From positions 868,001 to 932,000 of the forward strand of contig CDLV01000004.1 in NCBI GenBank assembly GCA_001244265.2: a stretch of DNA of 64,000 nucleotides, in the 5' to 3' direction. The notes beneath the pieces were generated by a model. It worked only from the letters and a program-made list of their open reading frames with translations. It did no database searches and was not told where the DNA came from. This DNA comes from Microbotryum violaceum. Lineage: Eukaryota. Within the stretch, counting starts at the first letter, position 1. Each line of letters opens with the position of its first letter. Below are positions 11,902 to 62,872 of the stretch, piece after piece. The translations under genes were made by a program, and so were the position numbers.

Positions 11902-12359
11902 GGGGCACTCGTTGAGAGGCTTGTGGTATACAGTGTCCGACCGTGGTGAGCTCCGACGATCGATTGCGGAGCTGGCTGCGAGGCTCCACTTGCTCTCCTA
12001 ACGCCCTCCACCCGCTCTCCTAACGCCGATCAGACCACGCGACCGTTCCGACTTTCTCGGCGACTTCTCCGATCCCTTGGGAAGCTGTGTCGGAACGGAT
12101 TCAATCTTGCGAGTGTCCGATTCGGGCGGGTAGAGGTGAATGCTAAAGGCAAAGAGAGAGGCCAATGACGTCCGCTGTACCTTTTCCCAAGCTCGCGCGC
12201 GGGTCTGTTTCCTGGGTGTTTCCTGACTAATGCCACACCCGCATCGGCCACTATTCACTTCCGGTTTGCTCCCCTCTCTGTCTCTCCCTCTTCACCATCG
12301 ATCCTAATACTTCCCTCAGCCTCTTCCTTTCCCTCCCCAGCGGTGGATCTCCCCCTCCC

Positions 12360-13146
12360 ATGGTCGCCGCCTCTCGTCGTTTCGTCATCGCAGGTCAGTC
12401 CCCGTTTCCTCCTCGCCGCGGCGGCCATCACGTGACTTGCCTCAACTCACCGTTCCTCTGTATCCCTTCCCCCAGGCCTGGGCAACTACCCCTACCCACT
12501 CACACGTCACTCTATAGGACAAATACTACTCAAAGCCCTTGCCCACAAAGCGGCCTCCCTACCCCATTCCTCCGGAATTCCCCACCTCAAACTCGATTCC
12601 TCTAAACACGTTTGGTCTACGATCGTCACCGTTCATTCTCAGAATGCTGCGTCCGCCCAAGGGGGGGATTGCCTGCCGTTCGAGTTGATGTTCTGTCTTC
12701 CTAAAAGGTTGATGAACGTTTGTGGGCCTGTGATCGTTGAATCGTCGAAGAGTTTCTTGGGGTCGTCGGCATCGGCATCGATGGTGCATTCGAAATCCCG
12801 AGTGGACGGATGGAAGATCTTGACCCTTCAAGACGATCTCGATCTCAAACCTGGATCGTTCGAGATTCAGCGAGGGGGATCACCAAGAGGTCATAATGGA
12901 GTCAGGTCCGTCGAAGGCGCTTTGGGCAATCGGGATTTCAATCGGATACGACTCGGGATAGGCAGACCAGAGAACAAGGCCGAGGTCGCCTCCTATGTCC
13001 TTGAGCCTTTAGGAAGAGATGAGGTGCAAAATATCGATTGGGATGAAGGTACACAACGCGGTGGAGAATTGGTCGAGCAGGTTTGGCTCGACGTGATGCG
13101 GATAGCCCAAGAGCACGCTTCGAACAAGCCATCAACCTCGACGTGA
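12360..13146 (+). CDS. PTH1: Peptidyl-tRNA hydrolase (bacterial-type Pth1); exons 12360-12393 and 12476-13146
   Basis: The spliced frame gives GLGN...TRHSIG, P..LMN..G, DDLD, GGSPRGHNGVRS and RIRLGIGRP. Canonical GT-AG intron. Confidence 0.92.
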
Positions 13147-13217: not shown

Positions 13218-17970
<4,753 letters not shown>

Positions 17971-21179: not shown

Positions 21180-23812
21180 GTAAGTCTTCACTGCTATTGC
21201 TACAGATGGACAACAGCAAGAATACTGATAGTTGCAGCGAATCACGCAAGAAAACAGGCTCTGGTTGCGTGATTTGCGGCTCACCATCCCGTGGCAGGTC
21301 CTCAATGTCTCGGTTCGGTGGGGTGACGATCACGTTGGCAGGTGTGTGCGAAACTTTCAAAAGCAAAACGCAGGCAGCATGACTAATGACCGGTTCGACT
21401 GTAACAGCACAGGGGATCCGAAGCAATGTCTTCCCGTTATTCCACGGCTCGGTTCGGTGTAGTGACCGTCGTGTTGGCAGGTATGTGCCAATATTTCAAA
21501 AGCAAAACGCAGGGCAGCATGACTAATGACCGGTTCGACCGTAACAGCACAGGGGATCCGAAGCAATGTCTTCCCGTTATTCCACGGCTCGGTTCGGTGT
21601 AGTGACCGTCGTGTTGGCAGGTATGTGCCAATATTTCAAAAGCAAAACGCAGGGCAGCATGACTAATGACCGGTTCGACTGTAACAGCACAGGGGATCCG
21701 AAGCAATGTCTTCCCGTTATTCCACGGCTCGGTTCGGTGTAGTGGCCGTCGTGTTGGCAGGTATGTGCCAATATTTCAAAAGCAAGGCGCAGGGCAGCAT
21801 GACTGACTGACCGGTTGGACTGTAACATCACAGAAGATCCGAAGCAATGCCATCCCGTTATTCCACGGCTCGGTGCGGTGGAGTGTGGACCGTCGTGTTG
21901 GCAGGTGCGTGCCGATCCGTGCAGCTGTGCAGAACGGACAGCGTGGTCAGCGCGATGGCCAACTCGACGCTGGGCTCGCCCCACCACCACCTCCGCAAAG
22001 GCGAGTGCGCCGGGCTCGAATCGCGTTCAAACCCCTCAAGCCCCACGTTTCGATCCGCGACGACCTCGGCCCGCAGACGGCCGTGTGCACCCACTGCAAG
22101 GCTCGGCACTGGGAGTGCAAAAGGTCCAAGTCGACCAGACACTTCAGCGCGTGCTGCTCGCAGGGCAAGGTGCGGCTATCTCCCCTCCCCAGCCCAATTT
22201 CGAGTATCGGCAGCTTCTTGAAGGCTCGGATAGCGGTCAGTTGCTCCGTCCAATAACATCTCTCTGCAGTATGGCCCACATGCTGAACTGTGTGATGCAC
22301 CTACACAGACGCTAAAGCATTCCGCGAGAATGCCCGGTCTTACAACAACGCACTATCCTTTACTTCGCTCGCTACCCACTGGGACCAAACCCAAGTGGGC
22401 ACTCTAGGACCTCCCGTGTTTCGCGTGTTCGGCCGCCTCTATCATTGACTCGGTGCCCTGATCCCTGCCGTGAATCAACGCCCAGCCTTTGCCCAGACAT
22501 GGCTGATCGACCCGGCCGAGGCCACCAACACACGACTTCAAGGACCCGACAGCACAGAGACTCGCATACAAAGTTCAACGCTGACCAAGCTAGAGTCCAT
22601 GTTGCGCACTGGCAATCGCTTTGTGAGGGAGTTCGCATCGGCCAAAGCCCGCGCGGGTTGGGATACAGCCAATGAGTGGGTCCTGCGCCTCTGTCTACCA
22701 CCTGGCCGAGACCGACGCACCCACAACCTTCCTACGTCAAGCACGGAAATGGCGATGCTTATCTGCGATTCCGGCACCAACACGGGAGATCGTGGACCGC
22801 AAGACCTTATTCTCCAGGTGCACGGTGATCGATGTCCCGATGGTCGGCCCAAGTACCAAATCGTTAGCTCGCTCCATCCGTCCGCGATGCCTCTCCGTTA
22901 CCCACTACTCTTTCCTGCAGGGGAAGATGGCTTCCACCCCAACATTCCTCTTTGCGGTTTCAACCAAGCTGGGCTGCCCATCGCCAGAAACCGAGAGCAG
23001 ATCGACAATGGTGTCCAATTGCGCGAGCTACTTGCCGGCCTTGGTCCAGATGAAGAAGACGAAGAGGAGGACGAAGACCGCGACAATGAGGATGAAGACG
23101 GCGAGGAAGGGGACGAAGAGGATGGTGATGGCGAACGTACGCGTCTTCGGCTCTTTCTCTGATGTTCCATTCTACCGAAGGCGCAAGCACAGACTGAAAT
23201 TGAACTTTTGAACACCTAGGACGAAGGTCAAGTAAAGGGGTCGAGGTGGCGAGTCTCGCGTTCACAATTCTTTGCGCACTACTTGCCAAACGCGACGAGC
23301 ACTTCTCAATCCCGCATTGCACCCAACGTCCCCCTGGAGTTCGTGAATTACGGATGTACTCCCAAGTCAAGACCGATTGACTCAACACATCCGGTTACAT
23401 CAAGAGAACCTACGCTTCACCACGACCCAAGGCATCAACGGCTTGACCCCGAACCAAATCGCGACATCACGCAGCGATACCAGGATGCGATGGCGTGCGT
23501 TGTCAAACATGGAAAGCCTCCGCTGCTCATCACGATGACGTACGACCCCGAAGCGCCGGAAATCAAGGCTGCACTGGGGCCGATAAAGCATGCAACCGTC
23601 CGGATCTCATTGCACGAGTGTTTGAAGCCAAGTCCGGCAACAAGCGACATGCAGGCTGTTTCGGCAATGAATGTAAGATGAATGGATTTTGTTTCTTTGC
23701 TGTATTTCGTATTGTGTTTTCTTAACCTCTGCGCTGATATCATGCAGACTGTTCGATTATCCTGCTATTTTTTGAATTTCATCCTCCCGTTAATTTAACG
23801 GGTTCCCACTGG
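21180..23812 (+). mobile_element. Rearranged Helitron: helicase fragment, Zn finger, Helitron N-region, Rep motif, 3' end
   Basis: CTHCKARHW..CCSQGKV, YNNALSFTS, AFAQ, NLPT..E.A, YPLLFP.GE.G and YQDAMA.V..GKP.L.ITMT...NRPDLIARVF. The terminal hairpin CCCGTTAA-T-TTAACGGG (23786-23802) is followed by CTGG|T. Confidence 0.88.
21342..21904 (+). repeat. 140-bp tandem array (4 units), each a 72-bp GT-AG intron plus a 68-bp exon
   Basis: Units start at 21342, 21481, 21621 and 21761: GTATGT...GACTAAT...ACAG, then GGGATCCGAAGCAATGTCTTCCCG (GDPKQCLP). Confidence 0.92.
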
Positions 23813-43589: not shown

Positions 43590-46500
43590 ATGATCGACAA
43601 GCTGGTGCAATACGTCTTGGAGGAAATCGCCATGGACGGCGATGAAGGTCAGTGCATAGCTCCCTCCTCCCCGACGACGATGACCGGCCACAACACACCA
43701 GCCCAGCCCAGCCCAGCCCAGCCCAGCCCAGCCCAGGTAGCCCCAGCCCAGGTAGCCCAAGCCAGGTAGCCCAGGTGGGGTGGGGGTCTCAACCGCCGTG
43801 GAGTGGATCCCGGCTTGGACGTGGGCTTCTTGAGTGCGCTGGCTGGCTTCGGCGGGGAGGCTTTTAGACGTCATGATCGATCGGGCTGTCCCAATAATGC
43901 TGCGAGACTGTCCCCGTGCCCGTGGATTGAACGAGCAGTCCCGTCGCGGGCGTTACAAGGACCACGCCCGCCCTCACTTAGAACTGGACACTCGGTGTGA
44001 TTTCTCGCTCTCATTGGCTTGCCGTCGTCGGTGAAACTCAGCCTCGTCACTCTGCCCGTCGCCCCATCTTCTCCCGATTTTGTCATCTCCGTTGATACTG
44101 TTCGCTGATCTGTCTTGGTTCGACAGGGACCGACATGACCCGACTCACGTCCTTTATCCGAGAAGCTTCGACCACGACCATCTCATTCGACCCCTCCTCA
44201 CAAGCCTCAACCTCGCAGGTAAGACAAACCATCGACGACGCCTTTGTGTCGTATGTCTGGTCTATCCTCACCGCACAAGAAGACGTCCACGTCGGCGTGC
44301 TTGAAAGGAGGAACGAAGTGGCCGAAGAGGTCGCCCAAGCCGCCTCAACGAGCAGCAGCCCGAAAAAGAAGGGCAAGGCCAAGATCGAAGGTGGAACGCC
44401 GACGCATACCATGCGCTACCTCGACGATACTACCCCTTCGAGGGACGAGTTCATGGAGCACCATGGCTCGGAACTGCGCATCGTCGTCGGCGCCGATACG
44501 GCGTGGCTCGCCATTACGGGCTCCTCAACTCGACTGACCGCGTTGACACCACCCGTCTACGCGCTCCTGCAATACGTTTCTCGAGGGCGCGGTGATGGCG
44601 CAACGGTCGTGACCATCGGCAAGCACATCGGCTATGACCAGAAGAGCACGTTCCACTTTGTTCGCGTCGCGGTCCAACTCGGCGTCGTCAAAAAGTTCCG
44701 CACCACCGATCACGGTAGTTGGACGAACCGCGTCGTGCATGTGCGCTACCTCGACCGATCCAAGGAATGGAAGATCCACAACCTCAACGAATCGGCCGAG
44801 GACGAGGAAGAGATCAAGGCCGGCAAGGGAGCTGACGCGGAGCACGACGACGACGACGAGAACGCACTCCTCGAGGCCGCTGGCGCGGCAAGGAGGATGA
44901 GTGCGATCAGTCACCGCCACATCAATACCAACTCGGAGATGGTACTCAAAAGGATTGTGCGAGCACTCAAAAAGCGCGAGGGCTACTTCATGCCCCATTC
45001 GCAGATTGCACCCACGATCGTCAGTGGATCCTAGGCTATTACCACTTTCATGTCCTGAATACTGACGAAGCTTGCCGGATGCGCCTTCACATCATCGACC
45101 AGGGTCTGTATCACTATACCTGCAAGGATTTACGACGACTGAACAGCCTCATCACGATGATGGCCAAGGACGGCGTCATCGAGAAGCTCGTGGTCACGGA
45201 TTTTTCGGGTCGATCGAATGCGCAGACTCCATGCGTGCGCCTCGTCGACGTCGATGCCTATACCGACGGCGAAAAACCTGGACGCATGTTCGAATTTGAC
45301 GAGGAGCAACGACCCGAGGACGATGACTCGCCCCATGCCTACACTTTCGTTCCGCTGGACCGACAGATGCTCGACCTTCTCGCCGAAGCCGGCGCCGAAG
45401 GTGCAACCTGCGCCGACTTATCGGTGGCGCTGGGCGGCATCAACATGAGGACGATTGATCAGACATTGACGAGGCTGATGAGAGAGTCGTTGGTGTCTGC
45501 GCAAACAAAGGACTACTGCGTCAAGATGATGACCGAAACCTTTGGAAGGGAGAAGCGTTCGAGGTTTTTTACGGCTGCTGGCTACGTTGCCCGGTGCCGT
45601 CAAGACGGAGCCGAGGTGCGGGACGGGGCCAATGCGCTCGACTCGGACGTGGTCGGAACGTGGCAACCCATCGAACAATGCTACGACACCCTCGAGAGCA
45701 AGAGAAAGTGGACCGGTGAGCTCGATCTCCGTTCCGGGGCCACCGTCAAACGAGGCAAAGGCAAATTCCACGCCATGGAAGCGAGGGAAACGTTGTGGAC
45801 TCGAACCGGCATTGCAAAGAGGGTCCAGGCACCCCGACGTGCCCCGATCAAGTTACCGAAACCGGTCAAGGCTTCCAAGATGGTCAAAGCGTCTAGAAGT
45901 GAAGGTTAGTCGAGTTTTATCGAGTTTATCCGCAACTTGAACGAAAATACACTCCCGTTTCTTACCTTTACTGTGCTCATACTTTCACAGCTGCCACAGA
46001 TGACAATGCTGAGGGCGGAACGCAGTCAGCGAGTGAAAACGTATCGTCGCCGGCACTCAAAGGCCCTCGTGGCCGCCCTCGCAAACAACTCCTAGAGGAG
46101 GGCGTTCTCACGTACTACGATAGGCGCAAGCTCGAAGACGCTGAGCGACAACGACTCGGGATGCTGCCTCGCCAGAAAGGCTGGAAGCGGGACCAAATCA
46201 AGGCAGATCGAGCCGAGTTCGTAGCGCGACAGGAGGCCGACAGGATCCAGAGGGGGCTTCCTACGCCCTCACCACATCCCGTAGTCGAGAAGAGATTGAA
46301 AGGGACCGGAAAGAACGCGGCGTCCACAACATCGGCCAAAGACATGGCGAACGAAGCGATGCCCGTCTCTGGCGGACCACCGGCCGAGGATGATCAGTCC
46401 CCCGATCATTCCTCGTCCGACGGAGCCGAGGAGGCTGCAATAATGCTCGGCCTTCGATCCCTTGCGAAAAAGCCCCGTAGTACCGTTGAGACTCTGGCCT

Positions 46501-49500
46501 GTACGCACCAAATCTCAGCCGAGCATGAGCCCATCCCTGAAACAGTGGCCGCGGTTAACACGGTCAGGCGACGCGGCCGGCCTCGTTCTCGTCCAGTGGA
46601 CGAACCGGTGACGTCTCCCGTGTCGGTCGAGCGTTGCATTGATACCGTTGTATCTTCTGTTGTGTCAAGCCTGGTGGAGGAGCCCGTAGTTTCACCCGTG
46701 GCCAAGCGTGGACGAGGCCGTCCGCGAAAAGCTAACAAGGCCGGTGAAGTGCAAGCTACTGCTCCGCGCGACGAGCCGGACGACCCCCAACGGCCGCAGC
46801 AATCACAATCCGCCTCCGCAACTGATGCCCCACTCCTGGAGCAGCCAACTTCGTAAGTCTTCATGGCATTGTAGGTACAAATACGCGTGGCTCGAACTGA
46901 TTCGGCCCCAAATGACACAGAGCCCCGAGAAGGCCGACGAGGGCGTCGGCAGCTTCATCATCGCTGGCGGAACCTATTACCCCTTCGCGCCTCGTTGTTC
47001 ATAAGCGCACACGCTCCGGGAGAGACGACCTCGACTTGGAATCGACGCATGCTGCGACCCCCGTGCCCTCGAATGCACCCGTCGGCCGTTCTGACGCTCC
47101 AGCGGAGGATAACGGTGCACAGCCAGCAAAAGCGCACGGAAGTCCCGCAAAGAAGCGGCGCGTCGACTTTGCCATCAAAGAACCGTCTCCGCCCTCGAGC
47201 GCATGCCAGGAGTCGTCGCAGCGAATCGAGCGCCGCGGCTCTCAGGTGGTCGCGCGATCAAGTATCGACGCTGCCCGGCCGTCGGGCACTCCGACTGTCT
47301 CACCCGGCCACTCGACTCCGACTGCGACGGCCCGCTCCTCCCAGCAACAAGGACGCTCTTCCGTCCTCGTCACCTCCAAGCGTCGCAGCGAGATCCTGTC
47401 GTACATCGAACACGTCGGAGGCATTACTGAACTATTCTTCAGGCTCAATCAGGCGATCAAGGACTTTGTCGAGTCTCGATCAGGCGATGATCGCACCGGC
47501 ATGATGGATCGCAAACATCTCGCCAGGCTTCTCGGCTCTTTGGTCGACCGGGGCTCGCTTCGGCGCCTTGTTGCGCAGTCAGGGGGTGTGGCGTCTCGGG
47601 TTGAGGTTTATTACCTGCCATCAGTTGACGTAGATGGACCGCAAATACGCGAGTTTCTGGCAAACCTCTCGACCCGAACCGGCTCGACCCGTGGCAAGTT
47701 GGTGATGCGTTCGGCCACCGAGACTGCTCTTATCAACAGTCAACTGCCCCACGACGACGCTTCCCGGCAGGTCGACAAGAAGGATGTGCCCGCCGCCGGC
47801 TCTGAGCGAGAGGTCATCCGCGTCTTCTTCAGACAAGCACCAAGCGTTTTGGGCGCTCGCTTCGGGGTTTACTATGGCCGTTACGCCCGTGCCCGGCATT
47901 TACACTCGTGGCTGTGGAGATACCTCAGTGAGCTCTCCGAAGTCGAGCAGACGTCATCCGGTCTAGTGCTCGCCATGGAGCCCGATCCTATCATCGCGCA
48001 CGAGCTGTTCGAGACCGAGATGCCTCTGGGCGACTATCTTCGAGTCGTGCAACTCCCCGTGGAATCGGAAGAGCTTGACGATTTTGTCCGAGATGCGCTC
48101 AGCTTGACCACGCGATTGAAGGACTTACCCCCTTCCATCCTCGCCGTTCTCGCGCCTCGATCAGCGAAGCGGCGGACCAGTCTTTGGGCGACATTGCAAG
48201 AGCTGATGGATCTGGAGTTGATTGCACCCCTGGCTCCAGCCGAGGAAACCTCGGACGAGGTCTCGCTTCTCGCCTCGCTCCGAACGCCTGCTCGCATTAA
48301 GTTTGCCACCCACTGGACCATCCTTCGACTCGTTCCCTTGTACAAGTTTGCAACCTCCACCAAGCCGCTCGTTGACACCTGCAGCTTCACGACGGGCGAT
48401 GACGCGCGTTCTTACTGGTCCCGGCTGCGGAGACTGGCATTTCCTTCATCGAAGCCCTCGCCTGCCGCGATCGTAGACGCGACCCTGGCGAAAGGATTTG
48501 CGCTGACGAACCCTGCGTCAAAGCGCATGGCGCAGTACATCAGCTCCACGACCAAATGGTACGACCAGTACATGTTGCTGCCCGACCAGCGACGCTTCCT
48601 CACACGCCTGCATCGCTACGACCACGATCTGATTAACGACAACGTGCGGATCGCGCAAGTCGCCGACGATCTGCTCGCCCCCGTTCCGGTGGTGGAAGCG
48701 TTCTGGCGCAAGCTTGACCACCGAGGGCGGGTAGCGGGTGAGGGCCCCATGGGCAAGCGTCATCGACGGCAGAGTAGCGCTCGTGGGCGCGGGCGCGGTC
48801 GTGGCCGAGTAGTGCAACGCACTCAGCGGAGCATCAAGAGAAGGCGCGTTAGGGCGGAGGGTGGATCGCAAAGTTCTCGCAGCGACAATGAAGACTTGGA
48901 TGAAGCGGCGGAAGCGTACGGCGCGCGGCAAGCTCTCTTGAACAAAGCGAACGATGCAGCGGCCCAGCGTGCGCGCGACTTCGACGCACTGCTTCAACGC
49001 TTCAAGTCGACTCACAGCAATGTCGAGCTCGATCCGGAAGTTGTCGCCTACGTCAGGAACCGGTTCTGCGCCGCAGGCCGTCATGCTATCGACCTTCGAC
49101 AAGTTGAGCTCGAGCTTCGTGCCTTGTTGCCGCCGATCGACATAGACCACCTCGACCCATCCTGCTACAAGTCAATAGTGCCGCATGCGGTGTTCTCCGC
49201 CAGTCGGTCTAGTCAGGATCCGTATGCCATACCTCGATTCTTCAAGTCGATGCGTCGCAAACCGAAGGCGAGCGCACAGGCGATGGAGGCCGTCGGCAAC
49301 GTCAACACAGAAAACGCTGGTGCGCTTGCGCCATCGCCAAACCCGTCGACGTCGGCGGCGCACAATCCACAGAATGAATTCCTAAATGCCCCAGCTCGCG
49401 AGGTTCCCTCGATCGCGTCTGGACATCGACTGCCGCGCAACTTCATGCGTGAAGATCAGATCGACCTGCTTTTCGACTGCGTAGCCATACTTAAAGCACG

Positions 49501-51481
49501 TGCCGCGCACCTCCGGCGCAAGGTGATCTTCACGCCTCTTGCAAAGGTGTTCCCGGCCCCTGCTTACGGCAAGCTCCGCCAAGTTTATGGCCGTCGCATC
49601 GAGACCTCTCCTGCCGATGCGGCTTACTTCGACCGGCTGCAGGCATCCTGGTCGCAGACTTGGATGGAGCACGGTGGGAATCTCCCCGACCCTAATCCCA
49701 CTGATCCGGCCGATTTCGATCTCGTCGCATTCGTCAGGTTCTTGCGGAAACATGTCGACAAACGAGCTCTGTGTGTTCTTCATCCCTCGCTCGGCAGGCT
49801 CCCGTTGGCGCTTTGCTTGTTGCTGACCAAGACATCTCCGTACTTTCATGGCTCGCAGTCGCTTGGGAGCTCCAGTCGCCAAGCCGATCGCCCTCGTCGA
49901 GTTGCCCGAAACCTCGGAAGAGCTCGACGCATCATTCGAGATCGATAGGAGCAATATCTCGACCTCGGCGGCGATGCGCTGGGTCGAGTTTTGGTCCCGG
50001 TCTCAGGCAGCGAATCTGGTTCGAGAACGAGCAGCGGCCAACGTCTCGTTCGCGACTTCATGCAAGTCGATTGATCCTCCAGGAGCGGCAGGACCGGATC
50101 TTCATCGCTTCAATCTGGCCCAAGGTGTCTTGAAGGTAAGATGAGCTCTGTCCTGTTCGTACTGATGCGCAGTGCTGATGCGCAAAATCGAGAAACGTCG
50201 CTGCCCTACAGATGGTTCTTGCTACGTCGCGGTCCGTCTACTCCGAGGAAACAGCAAAAGAACTATTGGCCCTTTTCGAGCCTTTCATTGATCAAGCCGT
50301 CGCCGATCTGCTCCACGGCCAAGTCATCACCCGTCGCAACAAGGACTCCAGTCGTCGAGGGCCAGGACGCAACTTCATCTTCTCCGAACGCTTTCTCGCC
50401 GCCCTCGATGATTCGCCTGCCCCTCACCGCCTACGCGACGCACAGAACATGGAGCACGAACTCGTGCAAGAGGATGCGAGTATCCTCCCCCTCGACGTCT
50501 CGGACGGAGCGATGCTTACGCTGGTCCGGATTGTGGCCCTCGACCTAGCCACCCTCGAGATCGACACGTCTCCAACGCAAGAGCTACGTGATCCCGATGA
50601 CTACCAGACACGCACCAAGGATGACGAAGCGATCGAGTGTCAGGTGAATGTGACTGTCAGACCTGGCATGACCTTTGCACGGCCCACTACTGCCAACGAC
50701 TTGACCCCACTTTCCCGCCCCCACTCTGGCTATACCGACGACGCGACCAAGCTAGCGAAGGCCCGCGGATTACTAAACGGGGCCTTGCACGCTGACGAGC
50801 AAGCTGCGCTCGAGCTGCATGGCGAACTCGTCAATGCTGGTCGTGATGGTCTTAGCGCGACTGCGGCCATGGACTTGCTTTCGATCTTTCCAAACTTGGC
50901 GAGCTTTGAACGCGCCGCCAGCGTGCTGGTCTCTACTGTCCCACCCTTGGCTTTTTGGGCCGGTCTCCGGGTACCTACGCTGATCGCCTCGCAAGAGCTT
51001 TCGCGCTGGTGCATTCGACTTCCCAACCAAGTTACCAACGAGCCCAGCGATCCCGAGAACACCGAGACGCTGGCGCCTTTCGTCTTCCCGGCACTTTGGA
51101 TCGATATTCGTGGCGAGACCGTACTGGGTATGTGGGTACGAATCGCATCATGGGTTCGAGGATTGATATCGCGGCACGCTGGAGCTACTATCGTCAGTTT
51201 GTTCGGTCTTGCGCCGGTGACCGTTTGGGAGCGGCATTCACTGACATTGGCCGAATTTGTCACGACCGTAGAGTTACCTCGCCGCAGAATGCGAGTCCAT
51301 AAAACTGCTCACCTTCGTCGAATTGATGACTGCGATTGAGACGCTCGAGCTAGAAGGGTATGTACAGCGCAAGCCTTTCGAAAACGCTTTCCACGCTGCT
51401 TCGGAGATGAGACCAGTCGGCGCGGCTTTGCAGCCCGGCTGGACTGAGGCGCGGTGGTTCTTGGCAGACAAGTGGTTCTGA
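43590..51481 (+). CDS. TFC3: RNA polymerase III transcription factor TFIIIC B-block-binding subunit (tau138/Sfc3/GTF3C1), multi-exon
   Basis: Exon 1 MIDKLVQYVLEEIAMDGDEG is a typical N-terminus. B-block winged-helix segment at about 44550-44750 and three AT-hooks. Introns include 43648-44126, 45020-45101, 45905-45990, 46853-46920 and 51193-51271. Ends WFLADKWF-TGA. Confidence 0.85.
43698..43775. repeat. (CCCAG)n microsatellite in TFC3 intron 1
   Basis: About 8 perfect units, then GGTAGCCCA variants. Confidence 0.9.
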
Positions 51482-52857: not shown

Positions 52858-53559
52858 TACTGTTGGATCTTTTTTAACTGGCTGTAGCATAGGATTTCTG
52901 GGTATGCAAAACTGAGTAGTAAAACCGAAGATCTACTGAGATACAGTGGGCAGTATGGCACACGGCAGAAGCGACGTCCGTTCGTCTTTGACTGATAAGC
53001 ATCTGTGTACAGGACCGATCCACCTGGCCTCCGGCTTCAGAGTCCATTCCTTGCGCCAGAGCAGCTCGACGGCGTGCGGGAGAAGTATGACTCGGTCATC
53101 GAGCCGTCCCTTAGGTCCGAACATCCGCGACCATCCTCCGAGTCTCCCAGTAAGTCGCAGCCGATTCGCCATCCTCAAGGCGCCAGCCGAGGTGTCATTT
53201 GATATATTTATGTGCCTGTGGTATCTGCGCGGTTGCCCGTGCGTTTAGTCATTAGTCATTTTGATATTGGAGTTCGCTCTGTTTAAGTTAGTTAGGGAGC
53301 GCGCAGGGCTTCCTTCCCGCGCGGCTGTTTACTCTCTCCTGTCGGAAATCTATCTTCCGCGCTCGCACCGTTTCTGCGACAGTGACGACCTCGATCAAAG
53401 ACCGGTCAGTCTGCCCGATAACGATTTATTGCGCGGGATGGCCAGAGCTTTATCATTGATTGGACCGACTTCCTTTTCCTCTCCAAAAAACAGTGTAGAA
53501 AGGGCTCGTCCCATGGGTCGTGTCGACGGGGAAGCAAATCCGTGCGTTCGGCCTGGAAG

Positions 53560-54057
53560 TCACGCCCCCGGCGACCGATAAGTTGCCAAGTGGCTTAACG
53601 AATCCGAGGTGTCCGCCGCTCATCGAAAGCCTTCCGACGTCGAATTTCCAGCGTGGTATTGGAGAAAAACAAATCGCATCTTGTACCACTCGAAAGTACG
53701 GTATGACGATCGGATCCGAGCTCGACGGGTCACCGTGCGCGTCGGCGATTTTGTCGTTTTTGGTGCTCCATCGGATTCAAGGGACCGTGTCGTATTCGCC
53801 CAAGTCGAAGCAATATTTAGCGTCGGACGAGACGGAAAGTTCACCTTGCTCCTCGTCACCTGGATGGACGAGAGTCAAACGCGTAATCTAGGCTACCTTG
53901 GCCAGGTTAGAGTGCTCCTTTCCACGCGGGGACTGTGGAGCGACCGAGAGTCATCGGGCTCGATGCCATCTCGAGCGAGCAAGGTGTACCGATTCTGAGG
54001 GATTACACAGAGCTGGGACTGCACATCATAGTCCCTTACCAAGTTTCGACAATCTGA
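53560..54057 (+). pseudogene. C-terminal beta-rich (BAH-like) fragment, as found on CACTA/Plavaka-type transposases
   Basis: VTVRVGDFVVF...FAQVEAIF...LLVTW pattern. Confidence 0.35.
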
Positions 54058-54208
54058 TGGAGTGTTCATGTGATCTAGGGTCACTTGCAATGACGTCGCA
54101 TGAAAATTGCTCCAGTCTTCAAAGCGCTCTTCCTGCCGTCGGCCTTGTCGGAGGCACGGACACTTCGATGAAATCGATGCAGCAACCTTGCTCCAATCTC
54201 GTCAATGC

Positions 54209-54340
54209 TTTTTTTTTTTTTTTTTTTTCGATGCCACCTGTTGATAAGAGAGAGACTTCGCTTGGGAGTGTGATTGTGAAGCCTAGGGGTAGTTCATTAA
54301 GCTCGAAACCCTCCACTCTGTGGAGGGGCTTGTACCTTAT
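54209..54340 (-). mobile_element. 3' end of a retroposed element: poly(A)20 plus stem-loop
   Basis: T20 at 54209-54228. Perfect hairpin CCCTCCAC-TCT-GTGGAGGG at 54309-54327. Confidence 0.55.
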
Positions 54341-54859
54341 CCGCGCGTTTGGCTCAGTTGCCTATCGAAATTTGGCCCAGAAAACTACCACCTTGCTGTA
54401 GCATGGCAAATAAAATCAATCTATACAATCTGTTTCACTAGGCGCATTCTTATGCTATTCTTTCGAGCGTCTACCCAAGGAAAGACTCTTACAAAGCCTA
54501 TTCATTGAGCTACAGCGGTGAGAAGTCGTTATTTTCGTCTTGGAGCTGGCTCGCGCACGGATCCAGAGGGACGGTTCTTCGCGCCGACGTGAATCAGCCA
54601 GTCGCGCCTCACCGGTCTCACCTTTGGTCCACAACGCCAGTCCACGACGTCGCTACCGCCCTCATGATCCACCATGCCCGTACAAACGCCAACACCTGTC
54701 AAGGGCACACCTCGTCGTCTCCATCAATTGAGTTCAGAGAGTCGCCCTTACGATCAGCTTCGAGGGCAAAGCCAACGACATCAAGGGACCATCACTCAAC
54801 CAACACAACCCCCGAACTGCCTACCCGTCGCTCTCGGGCTGCTTACTGGAGATCACGAT

Positions 54860-55380
54860 TAACTCAAAAAGATCGAGTTGGCCCGATTGAGTTACGCAAG
54901 AAGCTCAGACTCCTCTTGGTCGACAACTTTGGCGAGGACTTTGTCCCCGGCCGGTGCAAATCGAAGCTCTCGCGGGACTTTTCAGCATGAGCGGTTCAAG
55001 ACTCGAAATCAGTATGACACTGTGTTCGTCATTGCTCCAACGGGTTCCGGGAAGAGCTTGATATTTCAAGCCATGTATTTGGTCTACGGACGCCGGGCTG
55101 TGACCATAGTTGTCAGTCCTCTGACTGCACTGAGCCAACATCAGGTAGGTTTTATTTGGTTGGCCGTTGAGGCGACGCCGGTGCTGAGTCCCACGGTCTT
55201 GATTGAGATTGTCGGCCTGTAAAGGTATCAAGAGCGAAAGAAAGCGGTTGTCATATGCAAGGAAACATGGGGTGACGGAGAGCTGTACCAGCAGTTGAGC
55301 GATCTCTCCCATACTGTCTCATTCATCTTTATCGTACGTGTCCATTCAATCCGCCGTAGGTTTTTGCATGCTCACAACCC
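54860..55380 (+). pseudogene. RecQ-like SF2 helicase, N-terminal fragment
   Basis: Q-motif (P)RPVQIEA, Walker A APTGSGKS and motif Ia VVSPLTAL..HQ. Two frameshifts near 54948 and 54983. Truncated before the DExH box. Confidence 0.8.
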
Positions 55381-55396
55381 CCGTACTGATAGCTTG

Positions 55397-55826
55397 CTAC
55401 TGAAACTCCCGACAGTCTCCAGAGATGCACAATGGAGACAAGCGCTGAACTGAGCTGATATCGAAGGACTCGTTCCGAGAACGAGTTATAAGAGGCCTTG
55501 CCGCGTTTTTGTATACTGATCTGACATGCTGGAGTGTTACCCACCTGGTTGGCAATCCAATTATTGATTCGACCTCGTGCGTCTGGGCCGTCGTCGCGGG
55601 CGAGTTGTATGATGAGATCAAGTACATGCTTGAGCTGGGTCCAGTTACTGTTGAAGAGCTTTGTCCTATGATTGTGAACACGATCATGTTCTGTTGATGG
55701 GCTGAAATACCACGAGAGGTATTGACATAGTGAGAGCTTGTGAAGCCGAAACCGAGCGAATAGATCCGCCCGACGGCGGCGATCCTGGCGAGTCGTCGAG
55801 TCATAGCGTTTGCGGTTGCGCGTCAT
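55397..55826 (-). pseudogene. N-terminal fragment of a helical protein, tentatively DUF6589-family-like
   Basis: L..YL..YF...HR.KLF...W..L..VLD.I......GR..NWI pattern, recalled from basidiomycete TE-associated proteins and not verified. Confidence 0.35.
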
Positions 55827-56499
55827 TCTGAGATAAGCGCGGTGTTGCACCGATAACAAGCGAAGAGCATAGTACCGAGAAGACGAGTGATGCGGAATGG
55901 GACGGGAGAGAAACCGATGCGCACACGCCGAAGGTTTTATGGCTCTATAAGGACGGGCCATATGGCACACGCAAGGATGCCGTACGGGCTCGATGAGGTC
56001 GCACTACAGTAGAATAAATCTGCTGCCATACGGAAGCCATGGTTGTCCGCCCAAGAGTCGCGTTCAGTCGCAGATAGTACTCCGGTCTACAGGGCTGATC
56101 ATTGTACAGTGGGTTTCTACCCTTGTCACACGACTGTGTTTTCTTGCATTCTCAAGCTCAACATCGCGTACGAGGCCGAGCAGCCTCCGAGCAGCCTCCG
56201 AGGGGCCACTCGGTCACTCGGTGCTTGTCTGCGGCTTGCGAGTGGCTCCGGCCGTGCCCGGGGGCGGGGGCTGAGACCGACCGGTTGTGAGAGAGGAGGC
56301 GAGAGGAGGCGAGAGGAGCCAGCTGGAGCGGCCCTGGCGCCTTCGCGGAGCCCCACCCTCTCTTTTGTTTGCCCATTTGACAATCCCGGGCACAACACAC
56401 CTCTCGACAGTGAACACCATTTCCGTTCAGTTGAGGGACTTGGAACAAGTCATGGAGAATGGTGGGTGCTAACGACGTCATGGTTCCCGGCCAACCTGG

Positions 56500-58416
56500 A
56501 TGGTAGCGACTCTTTGCGGCACTCGGACCCACGCCCGGCCGTTGGCTCGCAGTCGCGTTGACGTGAACACTTTCATCGTGTCATCATCCTCATTGCCATC
56601 ATCCACAGACTTTGTTCTGGAATGGTCCTCTCAGCGAGCTTCTGCCGGCTATGTGTGCCGGTACTGTGGTGGCGAGCGCATGTGGTATCGTCGCGCCGTT
56701 CGACACGCCGCGACCAAGAAGCACCTCGACGCGTACAACAGTCGAGCCGATCCCGCTGTCAATTGGACCAACCGGTTACTGCAACCCACGCCTCAGGCGC
56801 TCTCGAGCAGCGACGAGGCGGACTTGGTCGATTCCAATCAAAATCCGGCAGAGACCGGAACAGTAGGCCACTCTCTGCTTGCTGTCGCTGGCGAGATCAT
56901 CAAGTCGTCTGAAAGCGTGCCTGCTTCCAGTCCGTCCCCGCCAAGTGATCACGAGGATTCCGTTCTCGACCACGCCCTCTTCCTTCCAGAAGGCAATTGC
57001 TCGTCCTATTCCCAGGGCACTGGCTCCAAGTCCGACAGCGAGGTCGAGATCGATGGCGGGGCGGAGGAAGAAGAGTCGGATGACTGGGTTAAGACTTGGG
57101 CCACTGCGGGCTCCACCAGTGAGTGGGAACGAGCAATGATGCAATGCCCCTCGTAAATTTTCCACTAACGCAAGTATTGCCCAACTTCTGGGCTGTAGCT
57201 GTGGTGACAGGCAGCCCCGCGATGCCCACACGGCTGGGCGTGCGCAACTACACAAGCGTACCTGATTTGTCGCATCCCTGGTATCCCTTCCCCAGTCAGA
57301 ATGTGCGCCGATCTACTTTCTTTGCTCCGGAATCACGCGATTGGCCAGGAGCTGACCCCCTTGCGAACATAGATGATGATCATCGTCGTGTTTCTCAGAT
57401 CCCACAAGGCGTGCAAGAGCTGGACGACATGACATCAGCAACTTTGCCACTCGCGCTTGGTGCAATTTGGCGCACCGGATATTATAGAAAACGAGCTAAA
57501 TGTCACTAAAAGTGCGCTTTTGGCACTAAAATGCGCTAAATGGTACTAAATTGCACTAAAGCGCGAGTGGCAAAGTTGCTGATGATGCTTGCATTTGCCA
57601 AGGCCTTCGGCGTGCAGGGTCTTCCTGCGGCGTCTTCCGTCAAAAAGTTTCTGGCCAACTTGGAAAAAGAGATTCCCCTCTTCAAACCCCGCCAGTATAC
57701 GAAGGAGGACGGACGCTCTCTTCACGTGGTGTCGCCTCGCGATTATGTCGCTGCGGTAGGTCCCTGCCATTCCGTGTCAATGGTCGAATGCCTTTGACTG
57801 AACCGTTTCCGGGAACGAACAATTCTGCACAGCATTTTGCAACGCCTTCATTGGCCCCTCTCGTGCAGCATTATCCCGAGTTTCAGCCTTCTCAAGTCGA
57901 TTCCGCCTATCACACTCGCCGCTGGCTCACTGACCTTCCTCCCAGATTTTCGGCCCCATGGCCCGCGTCAGGGGCGACGACTACTTTGTTGACGAGATCA
58001 TCAAGCTCAAGGGTGTTGATGATATGCACTGGTTCGTCGGCCGCTTCGTGTCCTTCGAAAGCAAGGTGCACGCTTTCGTTTGCTTTGCAGCCATCAAGTC
58101 TATCTTTCGGGTCGAGGTCAAGCTGCCCGCTGCTGGGCGTCAACTCATAAAGTGGCCACAAATGTCCCCTTCGCGATGGTGCCTGGTACCTGTCGAGCAG
58201 TTCGATCATCACCCGCAGTTGGTCTTGACGAAAAGCGGCCTCGTCCCGACCGAAGCGTACAACAAGAACCTCCCGTTCCGCCACAACCTGCTTTCAAACA
58301 TTCCGGCTCTGTTGGTGCAGGGTCGTAGTGATCCCCTCCGACATGTGAGCAGACGCCTCGCGTCTTGTGGTCTCCTAGCGGTCCTGACAAAATTGAAAAT
58401 CTTCCCAGATCCATAA
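56500..58416 (+). pseudogene. Zn-finger Plavaka/CACTA-related fungal transposase, N-terminal half, spliced, with a MITE insertion
   Basis: CRYC..RHAATKKH finger, acidic linker, PWYPFPS, GV..LP, F.TP...L.HYPE...YH..RW...PM.RV...YFVDE. The catalytic half is absent. Confidence 0.6.
57433..57584. mobile_element. 152-bp MITE
   Basis: 26-bp perfect TIR CATCAGCAACTTTGCCACTCGCGCTT, extending imperfectly to about 36 bp. Internal (C/T)ACTAAA repeats. Confidence 0.9.
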
Positions 58417-59527
58417 ATCCCAAAAAGATAAAGCTACTCTAGGTCGTACCATCAATCAATGGTACAAAGGCCAACAGGTTGCCGTCACGGAAGGGCACGT
58501 GACCTGGTGGAGTATACTGGTGCGTATATATGAAGAGCCCGCCTCCACCCTCGATCCTGACCTGCGCTTGTAATCACCATACCAGTGGCAGGCGATGAAG
58601 GCGCCGAACACTTCGAACCTTAACGATTCCAAGGCCAACAGCTTCGCGAACAAGCTCAAGCGTTATGGTGACAACCTCGCCGAAGACGCCGCGAACGCAC
58701 TCCACGCGGGCCGCTACAAGAGGAATGGGGGGTTCGATCATCAAGCGTGAGCTTCATGCTTCATGGTGAGATACATGGCATAATCGAATATTCTGACACT
58801 TGGTGACTTTTTGGGCGCGTACAAGATTTCTCTTCGACACAGTCACGGCGAAGATGAAGCGACACTCCGGCATCCGGACGGCCCCTCAAAACACACTCGG
58901 CGACCACGCGCTACAAGCCGTCTGCTCTGAAGTCATCGAGGATCCGGTGAACAACCTCAGCTTTTCCAGCCGAGTAGCCGTGAGTGGCGCCCTCAATCCA
59001 CCACATGCCGAACTTGGACTGACGAACGATCCCCGGATCGAACACAGGACGCAGTCCAGGAGATGGGTGAAAAAAGGAGGACGGAAGACCACCAAAGATG
59101 AGGAGCACATCGAGGACGGGCAACCCTAAGCAAATTGAACAAGCTCTCTGGAGCATTCGACGTGTGCAAGGGGACTCGGGCGCGACTTGGGGTGGAGTCG
59201 GGGTGGACCATGGGTGGGGCTTTCTGAGACATATAACGGGGTTTTTTAGACTTGTATCAACATGTTTTTAGTATTTGCAATGAGTGTTGCTTCGTGTGAT
59301 AAGTCTAAAGGAGCCAGAAGACAATATGTACCTACAGCACCTGGTCCAGCATTTACTACAGCGTCCACCTGGTCTCCTTATTGATGCCCTACGTGTACCA
59401 CATTGCGTCCATGCTTCTACATTAGGGCCACCCTATCGTCCCACTATGGCTTCCTTCGGGAGTCTATATCAAGCCGCCCTATGGCTGCCGTATGGCTCGC
59501 ACGTGTTCATGCCCTATGGGCTGGCCA

Positions 59528-62487
59528 TTTTTTTTTTATCTAATAGATTTCATTAACAGCATATCTATATTAATGCCTAAAAATCCTCGGAAAAGACGGA
59601 GGGAATGCAGTTAAGCACACTGGCGAGGCCAGTAGTGTGGGACTCGTTGACCTTGGAACAAAATCAACCATACCCACTAAAACCCCCTTAGGCGGTTACA
59701 GCGAAACCAGTCGTCCCTTGGACTCCTGGATGGACGCGCGGAGCTCCTCAAATGCCGTTTCGGCGATCGGCTCCAGAGGATCCGACGAAAATCGACGGCG
59801 ACGAGAGAGCTTCCAGATCGCGTGGAAGAAGAGTAGACGCAGCTCGACGGGTCGGCGTTCCGAGCGAGAAACGACCGGGCACACGAACTGAACAAAGTCG
59901 GGGTGTGGGATAGGAGTGAGCGCAGACCAGAGGCGGCGGGCAAACGGGCAACCGACCGCAAGGTGTGCCAGGGTCTCCGGAGCCTCCGACAGGCACATGA
60001 CACATGCGGTAGATCGATTGTGGAGAGAACGGCTATTCGGAGAAGCGATTTGGCTACCTGGATGAAGTGAACCTAGGGAGAGGAGGTGGGCCGTGTCTTC
60101 GGCGTCCGAATGAACCCTGCGAATCTTGCGTAGCGCCTTCCACCAGGCATTCCAGCGTTGCTCGGGGAGACAGAAAACCCTCTGATGACCGAGAGGGAGG
60201 ATAGGAGGGTAGAGGAAGGCTTGGTGGCGTTTGGACGCGTTCACAAACGAAGACGGAGTCATCACCTCGCCATCGGGTCCTCGGAAAAGCGTCGGGTTCA
60301 CCGAGAGTCGGATTCCGTGGCCTGCTGGGAAGTAGAGGACGTGTGTTGCCCACCGCTCCAGATTCGGGCTCTTGGAAAGTTCGGGGGGTTCAGCGTTGTC
60401 ACCAAATCCCAGGCTTCGAAAAAGCGGATCCATCGTGGAGGGAGCAGGGCCTTCGTCTTCCTCACTGCGCGTTCCCACTGTGGAGGAGGGTGGCAAAAGT
60501 AGGCCCACCAGATCCAGACCCACGAGCGACGATGTGGGTTGGGGCCTGATTTGGGCAAGGTAAAGGGGGTGCGTTCGTTCGCCGCCTGAAGGCGAGTGCG
60601 GATGTCGAAGAGGTGCCGAATGAAGCAGCCGTCCGGGTCCCGAAGATGAAAGACCCACTTGGCGTGATCGACCGCGAGGCGCCGAGGTAAGTCAATCAAG
60701 CCAAAGCCGCCGTGGTCGAGAGGGGTGCAGAGGCGCAGCCGAGAGACCTTCGGGGTTTCTGAGATCCGTCCGAGGCTCGACCGTGGATAGCGATCATGAC
60801 CGCGTCCTCGATCTCCTTGACGACGCTCTTGGAAGCTGGGATGAAACGATTATGGTAGAGAATCTTCGTGTAGCAGTAGATATTGATTATCGAACATTTC
60901 GCTGCGTACGGAAGGTCGTACATTGGGATGGATCGTATCCGGGCGACGGTCGCGGACTTGACCTCCTCCCAGCCCGCATCCTCAGCGATGTCCACCCCAA
61001 CCTGCACTCCCAGGTAACGAAACTGCGAGTCGCTGAGACGCCAGGACCCGAGGTGTGAAGGGATCGGACGGTCCCTGAATGACCGAGGGGGTAGAGGAAA
61101 GATTTGGCGTTGCTGAGCTTGCTGGCACTTGCCCGCTCGTACAGCTCGATCGCCCGATTGAGGTGGTCGAGGTCCGAGGTGTCGTGGAGAGCACAGCAGG
61201 CATCGTCGGCAAAGAGAAGTTCTCGTATGGTTGGGAGTCCCGGGCTCGCGATGCCCTTGACTTGTGACCGCAACTGTACGGCGAAGCCCTCAATTGCGAG
61301 AACGAAGAGCGACGGAGCCAGCGGGTCGCCTTGTCGAACTCCCGAGAGGATATCGAACGCGGCCGAGAGCCATCCGTTGAGGTAGATTGAGGCGGATTGG
61401 TTTGTATAGGTCGCTCGGTACCATTGGCAGGCTTTCGGGCCAAGGCCAACGGCGCTGAGGACTGCATCGATGTAGGTGTGGGAAAGACGGTCGTAAGCCT
61501 TCTCGAAGTCCATCACTGCGAGCAGACCGGACACCGGCTCTGAACCGGGAGCCCAGGATCCATGAGACACTGCACCTCGGCGATGTTCGTGCCAATCCAG
61601 CGGTTCGGAATGAAACCGCGCTGGGTCGAGCCGATCAGGGTCTCGAGCAGAGGGGCAAGGCGCTGGTTGTGGGCTTGGGAGATGATGCGTTCATCAGCGT
61701 TGATGAGTGATATGGGGCGTTTGTTCACCAGCCGATCCCTCTCGCCGCGCTTGTGGATGAGGTGGATGTGGGCAGTGTGGCGGGCCGACGTTCGAGAACT
61801 GGCGTCGTCGGTGGGGATCGAGTTGATGACGTCGCGGAGGATGGGGCCTGTGGCTGTCCACGTTGCGCGGTAAAACTCGACCGGGAGACCGTCGGGTCCA
61901 GGCGAGGAGTTCGACTTACACGCCTCTTGTGCCTTTGTTATCTCCTCTAGGGGGTACGCTCCTTCGAGCTTGTCCGAATCGGCAGGGGATAGGCGAGTCG
62001 AGGCGAGACCGTCGATAATCTTCTCCAAGGCGTCGTCATCGATAGCGCGATCCTCGTAGACCCCTTCGAAGTACTTGCTAGCGGCTCCAAGCATCGAGTC
62101 GGGGTCGGAGTGGACGACATTGTCGACCGAGAGGGAAGGGATGAGGTCGGATGCGCGCACTTTGCGTAGGCGGATGAAGATGGAAGATGGGCCCGCGAGG
62201 GAAGGATCAATGCGGGACCGCAGCGCCGCGCCGTAGCGCGAGTGATCTGCCTTCGCCTCCTCCGATCCTCCACGTCGGAAGCGGGCAAGTGTGCGAGCCA
62301 GAGCCTGAAGCTCGGGCAGCAAGTGTTGTTTGGTGGACGTCCAAGCTGCTGATGGGTCGTCGGGCGTCTGGAGGAGGGCTTCATTGTAGAGGGCCTGGAC
62401 AGTGGAAGTGAGGTATTCGCAGGTCGCGTCGCCCTCGATCACGTGCAAACCCAACTTGAATTTACCCGGACCGATGTCGATTGCGCC
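59528..62487 (-). mobile_element. 5'-truncated L1/Tx1-like LINE-3 (RT, Zn finger, short 3' UTR, poly(A))
   Basis: GPGKFKL, SSPGPDGLPVEFY, RPISLIN, DFEKAYD, GVRQGDPL, LFADD and CVMC..ETLAHL..GC motifs. Stop at 59696, T10 at 59528-59537. Several frameshifts. Confidence 0.93.
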
Positions 62488-62872
62488 CTATATGGACCAT
62501 AGGGCTATTCGCCTAAATGATTAGGAAGGCCGTATGCCAAGGCCATATGGAGCCATAGGGATGCCTTAAGGGGACTATAAATAGGCACCTTGTCGTCGGT
62601 CCGCTCTTCTCCTTTGGCCAATCACTCGCCGCTCGCTCGAGCTGGACCTCTCACTCGGACTTGCGCGCGACACACGTTCGTTGATCACCAGGTCACCGAA
62701 GTCTGCATGTAGCACACAAGTCCCACTTTGAAGAACGTCGCGTCGTCGTCACCACCGCCATCTCGCTGCCTACTCCGTCGCACCAACTTGTTCCAGCTCG
62801 GCTGTGCGCACGAGGTCATACCTACCGGAAGCCGCGTGACATACCATTCGCAAGGCTAAAGGCTCTAAGATT

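Follow-up and report, generated by a model that had tools for sequence, protein, structure and literature searches.

Gene pieces at the locus

A 64,000-nucleotide stretch of the Microbotryum violaceum genome (contig CDLV01000004.1 of assembly GCA_001244265.2, forward-strand positions 868,001 to 932,000; hereafter ‘the window’, in whose coordinates all positions are given) holds, between about 54.3 and 62.6 kb, a block of gene pieces of transposon origin. A preliminary description of this DNA had noticed, at 54860–58416, fragments of a RecQ-like helicase, a DUF6589-like protein, and a zinc-finger transposase, and had taken them for the wreck of one multi-gene element. All three fragments are present, as placed by tblastn and Pfam, and the stretch is transposon wreckage, but the block probably consists of the dead remains of two DNA transposons, unrelated to each other, lying end to end where a Microbotryum genome is rich in such elements. 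Since its scraps would stem from two different transposons, the region would be ordinary transposon debris rather than a new three-gene element. Remnant A (about 54295 to about 55900) comprises the helicase and DUF6589 pieces; remnant B (about 55928 to 62571) comprises the transposase and a fourth piece, from a protein family here called X, which starts at about 58207 and is cut through by the earlier right limit of 58416. Both would fall within known kinds of transposon, AcademH and the CACTA/Plavaka type. The identities of the pieces, their junctions, and the secondary insertions, given in the following list, are direct observations, as is the linkage of helicase and DUF6589 genes elsewhere.

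54295..54673, plus strand: region upstream of the helicase, repeated along with it (block boundary joint; contig and protein homology)
54674..55487, plus strand: remnant of a RecQ-like superfamily 2 (SF2) helicase, amino acids (aa) 1 to ~224 (tblastn with P0040/P0042; Pfam DEAD)
55488..55826, minus strand: remnant of a DUF6589-family gene, exon 1 and part of the first intron (phmmer, tblastn)
55827..55927, minus strand: 5' flank of the DUF6589 gene (P0001 homology; array-side homology of P0020/21/22)
55928..56060, no strand: left motif array, CCATATGG / CCATACGG / TATGGC (motif positions)
56419..58209, plus strand: remnant of a zinc-finger CACTA/Plavaka-like transposase, aa 1–407 of 1359 (tblastn with P0024, P0023)
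57433..57584, no strand: miniature inverted-repeat transposable element (MITE), 152 bp, inside the transposase remnant (perfect 25-bp terminal inverted repeat (TIR), termini CATCA..TGATG)
58207..59126, plus strand: C-terminal part of family X, about aa 303–523, following the transposase remnant (tblastn)
59430..59527, no strand: right motif array, inner half (CCCTATGG, CCGTATGG, CCCTATGG; motif positions)
59528..62488, minus strand: long interspersed nuclear element (LINE) inserted in the right motif array (Pfam RVT_1 and zf-RVT; poly-A at the 3' end)
62489..62571, no strand: right motif array, outer half, with the block ending at 62568–62571 (motif positions, contig joints)

Contigs from four runs were compared with the window: X1 and X4 (organism A), X9 (organism B), and X12 (organism C). 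The Pfam scan of the window covered stop-to-stop open reading frames (ORFs) of at least 110 aa.

The helicase and DUF6589 pieces

The helicase remnant starts at the ATG at 54674 with the N-terminus characteristic of its family (MPVQTPTPVKG), carries motif I (APTGSGKS) at 55034–55057, and is recognized by Pfam DEAD (PF00270) on the ORF at 54863–55222 (E=1.5e-6, 28.5 bits, cut-off 26). It ends with ..ELISKDSFRERV, homology stopping at ...FRERV, just ahead of the family's motif II; the family itself goes on with ..KLLAYDEAIKIAEWG, a motif II-like stretch (..YDEAIKIAEWG). Two intron-like gaps occur in the remnant, and relative to other copies, compared through contigs, a single base is missing at each of positions 54716 and 54978, which gives the window helicase two frameshifts. 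A search for longer relatives returned seven proteins from 3099 candidates, six of them from Microbotryum (237–495 aa), two of which carry the UniRef name ‘DNA 3'-5' helicase’; the seventh is a JGI protein (E=8.9e-4) that has the motif I/Ia region in common. All six family members scanned show DEAD or Helicase_C, the curated cut-off being reached by two only. Because the family member P0041 (495 aa) matches RecQ4 in the PDB (5lst, E=3.9e-4; 7a8r, E=4.2e-4), ‘RecQ-like’ is a fair name, though the matches are weak. One M. saponariae strain alone has at least 13 paralogous helicase gene models, which share the N-terminus and are mostly truncated.

Upstream of the helicase, the left boundary of the block is marked by a joint at 54294/54295 or 54297/54298 in all four runs, and five X9 contigs are homologous to the window from about 54341 onward; 54295–54673 probably represents the left terminal part of the helicase/DUF6589 element.

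On the opposite strand, exon 1 of the DUF6589 gene runs from a Met at 55826 down to 55545 (about 94 codons), the first ~111 codons of the gene lie at 55826–55515, and the first intron of the family begins after ..RINNWIANQ. The window piece is the N-terminal ~111 residues only, upstream of the DUF6589 domain itself; the minus-strand ORF has no Pfam match at E<=1, the window piece does not reach the gathering score of DUF6589 (PF20231), and 148 ORFs of at least 30 aa between 53249 and 59910 gave no Pfam match apart from DEAD and noise. Searching with the minus-strand ORF against 1.84 billion representatives, phmmer found 22 matches at E<=1e-3, with 14 at E<=1e-10 and five at E<=1e-30, the last at 55–86% identity; query residues 60–165 align to the first 93–113 residues of the best matches, with 80–86% identity to the N-termini of a multicopy family. 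Fourteen of the 22 were scanned against Pfam and eight were left out. Two of the 22, P0016 (cadherin/fn3) and P0018 (ankyrin/NACHT), are repeat proteins with several short matched stretches and were discarded as spurious. The homologs P0003 (571 aa; DUF6589 at E=3.7e-19) and P0053 (811 aa; E=1.2e-60, profile positions 10–380 of 410) both carry the domain, and the DUF6589 label is right because the N-terminus in the window is homologous to both. A search with P0003 returned 23 proteins, P0053 among them and all from Microbotryum, and the ESM Atlas gave no usable match to the minus-strand ORF. Candidate acidic motifs in P0053 (HVTIDNIDV, ILECDGG, FYLETLNYWLK) were picked by eye only.

The two pieces meet tail to tail at 55487/55488. 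That they are fused in this manner, as after an internal deletion, had been proposed and stands; the position given, ~55390, does not, the junction lying about 100 bp further right, since P0002 shares the sequence ..AARPL and then diverges where the antisense helicase starts. At the other end of the DUF6589 gene, homology to P0001 extends to 55853 by tblastn and to ~55870 by eye, while array-side homology (P0020/21/22) stays strong as far as 55935 and persists weakly to 55893; judged from these limits, the right end of the helicase/DUF6589 unit is within 55871–55934.

Remnant A as a probable two-gene element of AcademH design

The helicase and DUF6589 genes, to judge from their relatives, belong to a single element from which an internal deletion removed the middle, as had been suggested for the window pair. 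In P0001 and P0072 of M. silenes-dioicae, DUF6589 codons (to ~223 and ~87, respectively) lead straight into the antisense of window 54770–54532, that is, of the helicase start and its upstream region, and both genes face inward there too, at two other deletion breakpoints. P0084 (M. saponariae Chr11-1g03190, 608 aa) is a single gene model in which ~340 DUF6589-family residues are followed by helicase; its genes are in the same orientation, head to tail, unlike the face-to-face pair of the window. In M. saponariae BZ3500, of 13 helicase locus tags, four have one of the 22 DUF6589 tags no more than two tags away (Chr1-2 g01480/81, Chr3-1 g05583/84, Chr5-3 g08202/03, Chr5-2 g07768/70), and the other nine are 10–359 tags from the nearest one; assuming random placement over ~10,800 consecutive tags, the binomial p is ~7e-6. 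Along the same lines, contig depth in run X1 is 65–199 over 54.4–55.8 kb, against 25–33 for single-copy pieces.

Remnant A would descend, through internal deletion, from an element whose two genes faced inward, a RecQ-like helicase at its left end and a DUF6589 protein at its right. The deletion would have fused helicase codon ~224 with intron 1 of the DUF6589 gene, and because of this fusion neither product could be made. The pairing matches the AcademH design. The presumed DDE transposase of A is the DUF6589 protein, which would correspond to the Academ transposase; in elements of this type, as the literature implies, the transposase would cut and paste the element and the helicase would assist. 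In the literature searched, DUF6589 came up in one paper, as a listed domain, and nothing found there joins Academ, XPG, and a transposase.

One idea about the termini was set aside. CATCA-like ends for the helicase/DUF6589 unit had been considered (CATTA at 54295, TGATG at 55878–55882) and were dropped because the CAT at 54295–54297 is also present in a contig that has no block, described below.

The transposase, gene X, and motif arrays of remnant B

The zinc-finger gene is divergent from the minus-strand DUF6589 ORF, as reported earlier, and its finger, CRYCGG...RHAATKKH, lies at 56656–56724. Relatives of window 57934–58416 comprise 15 proteins out of 519 candidates, all from Microbotryum, among them full-length homologs of 1359 aa (P0024) and 1300 aa (P0026). 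These have an N-terminal finger, CxYCGGERM..RAVRHA.TK.HL, followed by LRLFLDDMAATES.RWNPMY, and, after HDSPMAA, a C(2)C motif (PCLHCPW or PCIRCRW) and DPH.HMP.D.LHV..LGIVKY, a region missing from the window copy; an H(3-4)H motif was not placed with confidence in either protein. Since P0024 can be followed only to aa 407, the transposase in the window is without its catalytic core.

None of the window ORFs matches Plavaka (PF18759) or Transposase_21 (PF02992), whether at E<=1 or at E<=0.05. Of the 30 ESM Atlas clusters nearest to P0026, 14 belong to a set for which the displayed cluster has Plavaka PF18759 in 42% of its members and eight to a set with Plavaka PF18759 at 100% (scores 0.95–0.96), and the three best clusters are without any family; likeness in this atlas is a lead-grade method. 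A PDB profile search with the transposase family gave two carbonic-anhydrase rows only (E ~0.9). Judged by sequence features, ‘CACTA/Plavaka-like’ is a fair description of the look of this transposase, outside formal Pfam membership. The labels RecQ-like, DUF6589-like, and Plavaka/CACTA-like of the preliminary description all hold through full-length Microbotryum homologs, with the Pfam transposase thresholds not reached.

The transposase remnant is followed by gene X. Family X (P0027–P0037, 316–542 aa) is multicopy and found only in Microbotryum, without a Pfam domain in the eight members scanned; the window keeps its C-terminal 40%. On M. silenes-dioicae contig C001, X (g00435) is two tags from a full-length transposase (g00437), and the next tag after the transposase (g00438, P0074) is a small ORF that runs through a CCATAGGG-type motif array. 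At three M. saponariae loci (P0020/47/48) the array-coded peptide CDLIEPVRHPC.CHMARPYRAI.. follows the region upstream of the transposase, with no DUF6589; the same peptide comes after the middle of X in P0022 and P0049. X is probably the second (accessory) gene of the transposase element. Other copies of X skip 163 bases at 58756–58920 and 278 bases at 59045–59324, and gene models of X homologs splice around the first; the two segments may be introns or indels of the family.

Clusters of short motifs had been pointed out at three sites of the block, and the pattern CC.TATGG or CCATA.GG has nine matches in the whole window, eight of which fall inside these clusters. The count itself is within chance, shuffled sequences giving 7.2 +/- 2.9 matches for the whole window; what goes beyond chance is the clustering. 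Positions 55937–55966 and the reverse complement of 62529–62558 are identical at 22 of 29 positions, a score reached by two of 500 shuffles; the direct orientation scores almost equally because the motifs are near-palindromic. From its sequence, the left array looks like a TIR of the transposase element, and the arrays are predicted binding sites of the transposase or the accessory protein. The putative ends of B at 55928 (CCGAAGG..) and 62571 (..CCTTAAGG) are not CA..TG, and no target-site duplication (TSD) of 2–5 bp was seen there. The left edge of the block (54295–54520) gave low scores only against the right motif array (22 and 24; no shuffle control).

Remnant B would be an internal-deletion derivative of a CACTA/EnSpm/Plavaka-type element, the group named CMCT. 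Its order would be array, transposase, X, and array, with everything between transposase codon 407 and about codon 303 of X deleted, so that what lies between the CCATAGGG-type arrays, themselves in inverted order, is the first 30% of the transposase and the last 40% of X. Remnant A may lie either just beyond B or within the outermost terminal sequence of B. Two insertions would have landed in B later. The MITE is flanked by a duplicated ATG (3 bp) and one extra base, A; other copies skip 156 bp (joint 57428 to 57585) in all four runs, and since the copies compared are without it, the MITE inserted after the window copy arose. The LINE, 2961 bp long and 5'-truncated, has a LINE-free joint (59527 to 62489) in runs X1 and X4.

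One composite or two elements

Several results weigh against two abutting remnants. The locus-tag lists are partial, being drawn from clustered searches. Each of the four runs has a contig, with a depth near single-copy, in which 54294 connects to 62569 through 22–24 other letters, so that the whole A and B block is absent together from another copy of the flank. The families also meet loosely elsewhere: on M. silenes-dioicae C032 a transposase (g11106) and a DUF6589 gene (g11101) are five tags apart, and on M. saponariae BZ3501 Chr12-3 a helicase (g03637), X (g03643), and DUF6589 (g03647) are 4–10 tags apart. For remnant A, a repeat search of 53800–56700 found no TIR; 54201–54680 compared with the reverse complement of 55827–55960 scored no higher than shuffled controls under ordinary and transition-tolerant scoring; and no matching 9–10-mer, as a TSD would give, was seen at the bracketed ends (left 54295–54298, right 55871–55934). 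As to the protein families, a PDB profile search with the DUF6589 family found nothing, and an AlphaFold2 model of P0053 from a 23-row alignment (mean predicted local distance difference test score 43, predicted template modelling score 0.27) is too poor for a fold search. Likewise, the full-length transposases P0024/25/26 match no Pfam family at E<=0.01, and at E<=10 the transposase homologs match only Transposase_21 (tnp2, CACTA family), at E=0.032 and 13.9 bits versus a cut-off of 28.6.

Two elements landing in, or beside, a single site of one repeated-flank copy would account for the block-free contig just as well, and the co-occurrences on C032 and Chr12-3 fit an accumulation of these families in repeat-rich regions. 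Runs X1 and X4 show the flanks in two sequence variants, and 21 filler letters of the block-free contig are found nowhere in the window with up to three mismatches. The block-free flank copy, with 22–24 unrelated letters in place of the 8.27-kb block, may be a paralog or the allele of the other mating-type chromosome.

These features of the flanks could also mean that the block was built by deletion, rearrangement, or ectopic recombination between scattered repeats, the ‘empty’ contig being a paralog of the repeated flank. Consistent with such an origin, the flank-to-flank contig offers no clean empty site, its filler being foreign to the window, no TSD is recognisable at any outer boundary, and the flank variants are two in number. 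The boundaries of the MITE and the LINE, however, are clean insertion joints, and B's arrays terminate at equivalent positions on both sides, as expected of element termini; rearrangement is an unlikely source of the block.

That 54.3–62.6 kb is one composite transposon, in which a Plavaka/CACTA transposase, a DUF6589 protein, and a RecQ-like helicase travelled together, is quite improbable. The three pieces are adjacent in the window, the block 54295–62568 is missing as a whole from another flank copy in all four runs, its ends show a short inverted similarity by eye (TAAGC left, GCCTTA right), and the families come within 5–10 tags of each other on two contigs rich in transposable elements. 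Yet the full-length transposase on C001 has X and the array ORF as neighbours, and the tags seen beside it include neither helicase nor DUF6589, the closest DUF6589 tag in the list (g00419) being 18 tags away, and three M. saponariae loci pass from the transposase upstream region into an array without DUF6589. In the window itself, the terminus-like left array sits between the DUF6589 and transposase genes, where homology of DUF6589 copies ends by ~55870 and that of array copies at 55935 (strong) or 55893 (weak). Run X1 has contig depths of 65–199 over the helicase/DUF6589 part versus 38–52 over the transposase part (single-copy ~25–33), a two- to five-fold difference between parts, and among the tags seen, the four linked helicase–DUF6589 pairs (from 13 helicase tags) have no transposase-family tag alongside. 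In these partial lists, moreover, every transposase-family tag is more than two tags away from any helicase or DUF6589 tag, with the five tags on C032 as the shortest distance; the three-gene synteny that a composite element would share with other loci has no second linked instance in them. The transposase, with its own arrays and X, would instead be a separate element.

A related possibility is that the block 54295–62568 once moved as a chimera, with an Academ-type left end and a Plavaka-type right end, a CMCT-type element having gained the helicase module. It can be entertained because the whole block, not its parts, is missing from another flank copy in four runs carrying three organism labels, and is slightly more doubtful than the composite. 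Hardly any credence is due to the helicase piece being an immobile pseudogene of a host RecQ gene, for which a match to the DEAD domain only and the UniRef helicase name of some homologs would speak, given the paralogous models with one N-terminus (at least 13 in one strain, most truncated), the linkage to DUF6589 genes, and the multicopy depth. Two abutting remnants, one of AcademH design and one of CACTA/Plavaka type, are the probable content of the block.

Surroundings of the block

The window has host genes for a Mur-ligase/FPGS-like protein (10378–11997), a peptidyl-tRNA hydrolase (12436–13143), a DEAH helicase (13573–16173), and a TFIIIC subunit (44096–51336), all from the Pfam scan of stop-to-stop ORFs, and between them lies debris of copia, LINE, and Helitron elements. 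One more transposon class is marked by a Helitron_like_N fragment (PF14214, E=4.4e-7) at 23220–23678, far from the gene scraps. The closest database proteins to the pieces in the window are all from Microbotryum, the best being 96% identical and from M. silenes-dioicae. When 53.5–59.7 kb and 59.3–63.0 kb were compared with the window by blastn, no second copy of any piece appeared except the MITE's own arms.

Left of the block, contigs of X1, X4, and X9 jump 143 bases at 53521–53665, a segment that starts with GT and ends with AG; therefore, an intron-less copy of the flanking sequence exists somewhere in those genomes. A flank ORF at 53582–53998 resembles, by eye only, the tail of another transposase-type gene. 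Just right of the block, opposite-strand joints around 62656–62723 in all four runs suggest a small palindrome or an inversion polymorphism.

Comparison with known transposons

The dSpm/I elements of maize En/Spm are internal-deletion derivatives of a two-gene transposon. Both remnants resemble them in keeping terminal regions and outer gene parts with the middle lost, and the breakpoints differ among the window, P0001, and P0072; mobilisation of the remnants in trans is not implied. Microbotryum belongs to the Pucciniomycotina.

Academ elements are described as most abundant in the Pucciniomycotina, their RNase-H-like domain having had no Pfam model in 2017 (PMC5751038). AcademH elements, which encode a helicase, are reported from Basidiomycota, Ascomycota, and Mucoromycota, where copies are few (PMC10799480), with TSDs of 9 or 10 bp (PMC10045372). 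Remnant A shares with AcademH (Kojima 2020, Mobile DNA 11:15, as presented in PMC10799480, PMC10045372, and PMC12210899) the presumed cut-and-paste type, the SF2/RecQ-type helicase beside the putative transposase, and the fungal host; it differs in that the window copy is a deletion derivative without both catalytic cores, and in that the partner gene is identified only as Pfam DUF6589. The preliminary description had called a transposon with its own helicase a poorly described architecture, but AcademH already stands in the literature as a DNA transposon encoding an SF2 helicase of its own (PMC10799480, PMC10045372).

Plavaka and EnSpm are placed in a ‘CMCT’ clade with C(2)C and H(3-4)H motifs, mostly CA..TG termini, and TSDs of 2–5 bp; rust Plavaka-like transposases had been filed as EnSpm, and PlavakaB has the terminal signature CATCA..TGATG (PMC12730594). 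Remnant B and its relatives resemble these fungal elements in the large transposase with an N-terminal zinc finger, a DD..-type core, and C(2)C after the second D, and in repeat arrays at both ends, and the nested MITE has PlavakaB termini and a 3-bp duplication. They differ in that the putative ends in the window are not CA..TG, the Pfam Plavaka and Transposase_21 thresholds are not reached, and the family turned up only in Microbotryum in the searches run here. Giant Plavaka elements of red algae, reported to carry accessory genes PAG1-3 (methylase/SET, ParB-like/2OG oxygenase), likewise combine a Plavaka-type transposase with extra genes and inverted-repeat arrays, and ‘Helicase’ occurs 0 times in the text of that report (bioRxiv 10.1101/2025.02.11.637652). 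Gene X, by comparison, has no recognised domain.

Significance

The block illustrates how, where repeats are dense in a fungal genome, transposon remnants that are nested or lie side by side can mimic a novel multi-gene element. For annotators of Microbotryum and other Pucciniomycotina, its by-products are a DUF6589–helicase linkage as expected of AcademH, a transposase that Pfam misses, and a possible sign of recent activity. The CACTA/Plavaka-like transposase family of Microbotryum escapes current Pfam models, and it comes with a second conserved gene, X, and motif-array ends. The MITE with PlavakaB-type termini may point to fairly recent activity of such elements. If the link between DUF6589 and AcademH is true, a Pfam family of ‘unknown function’ would gain a function.

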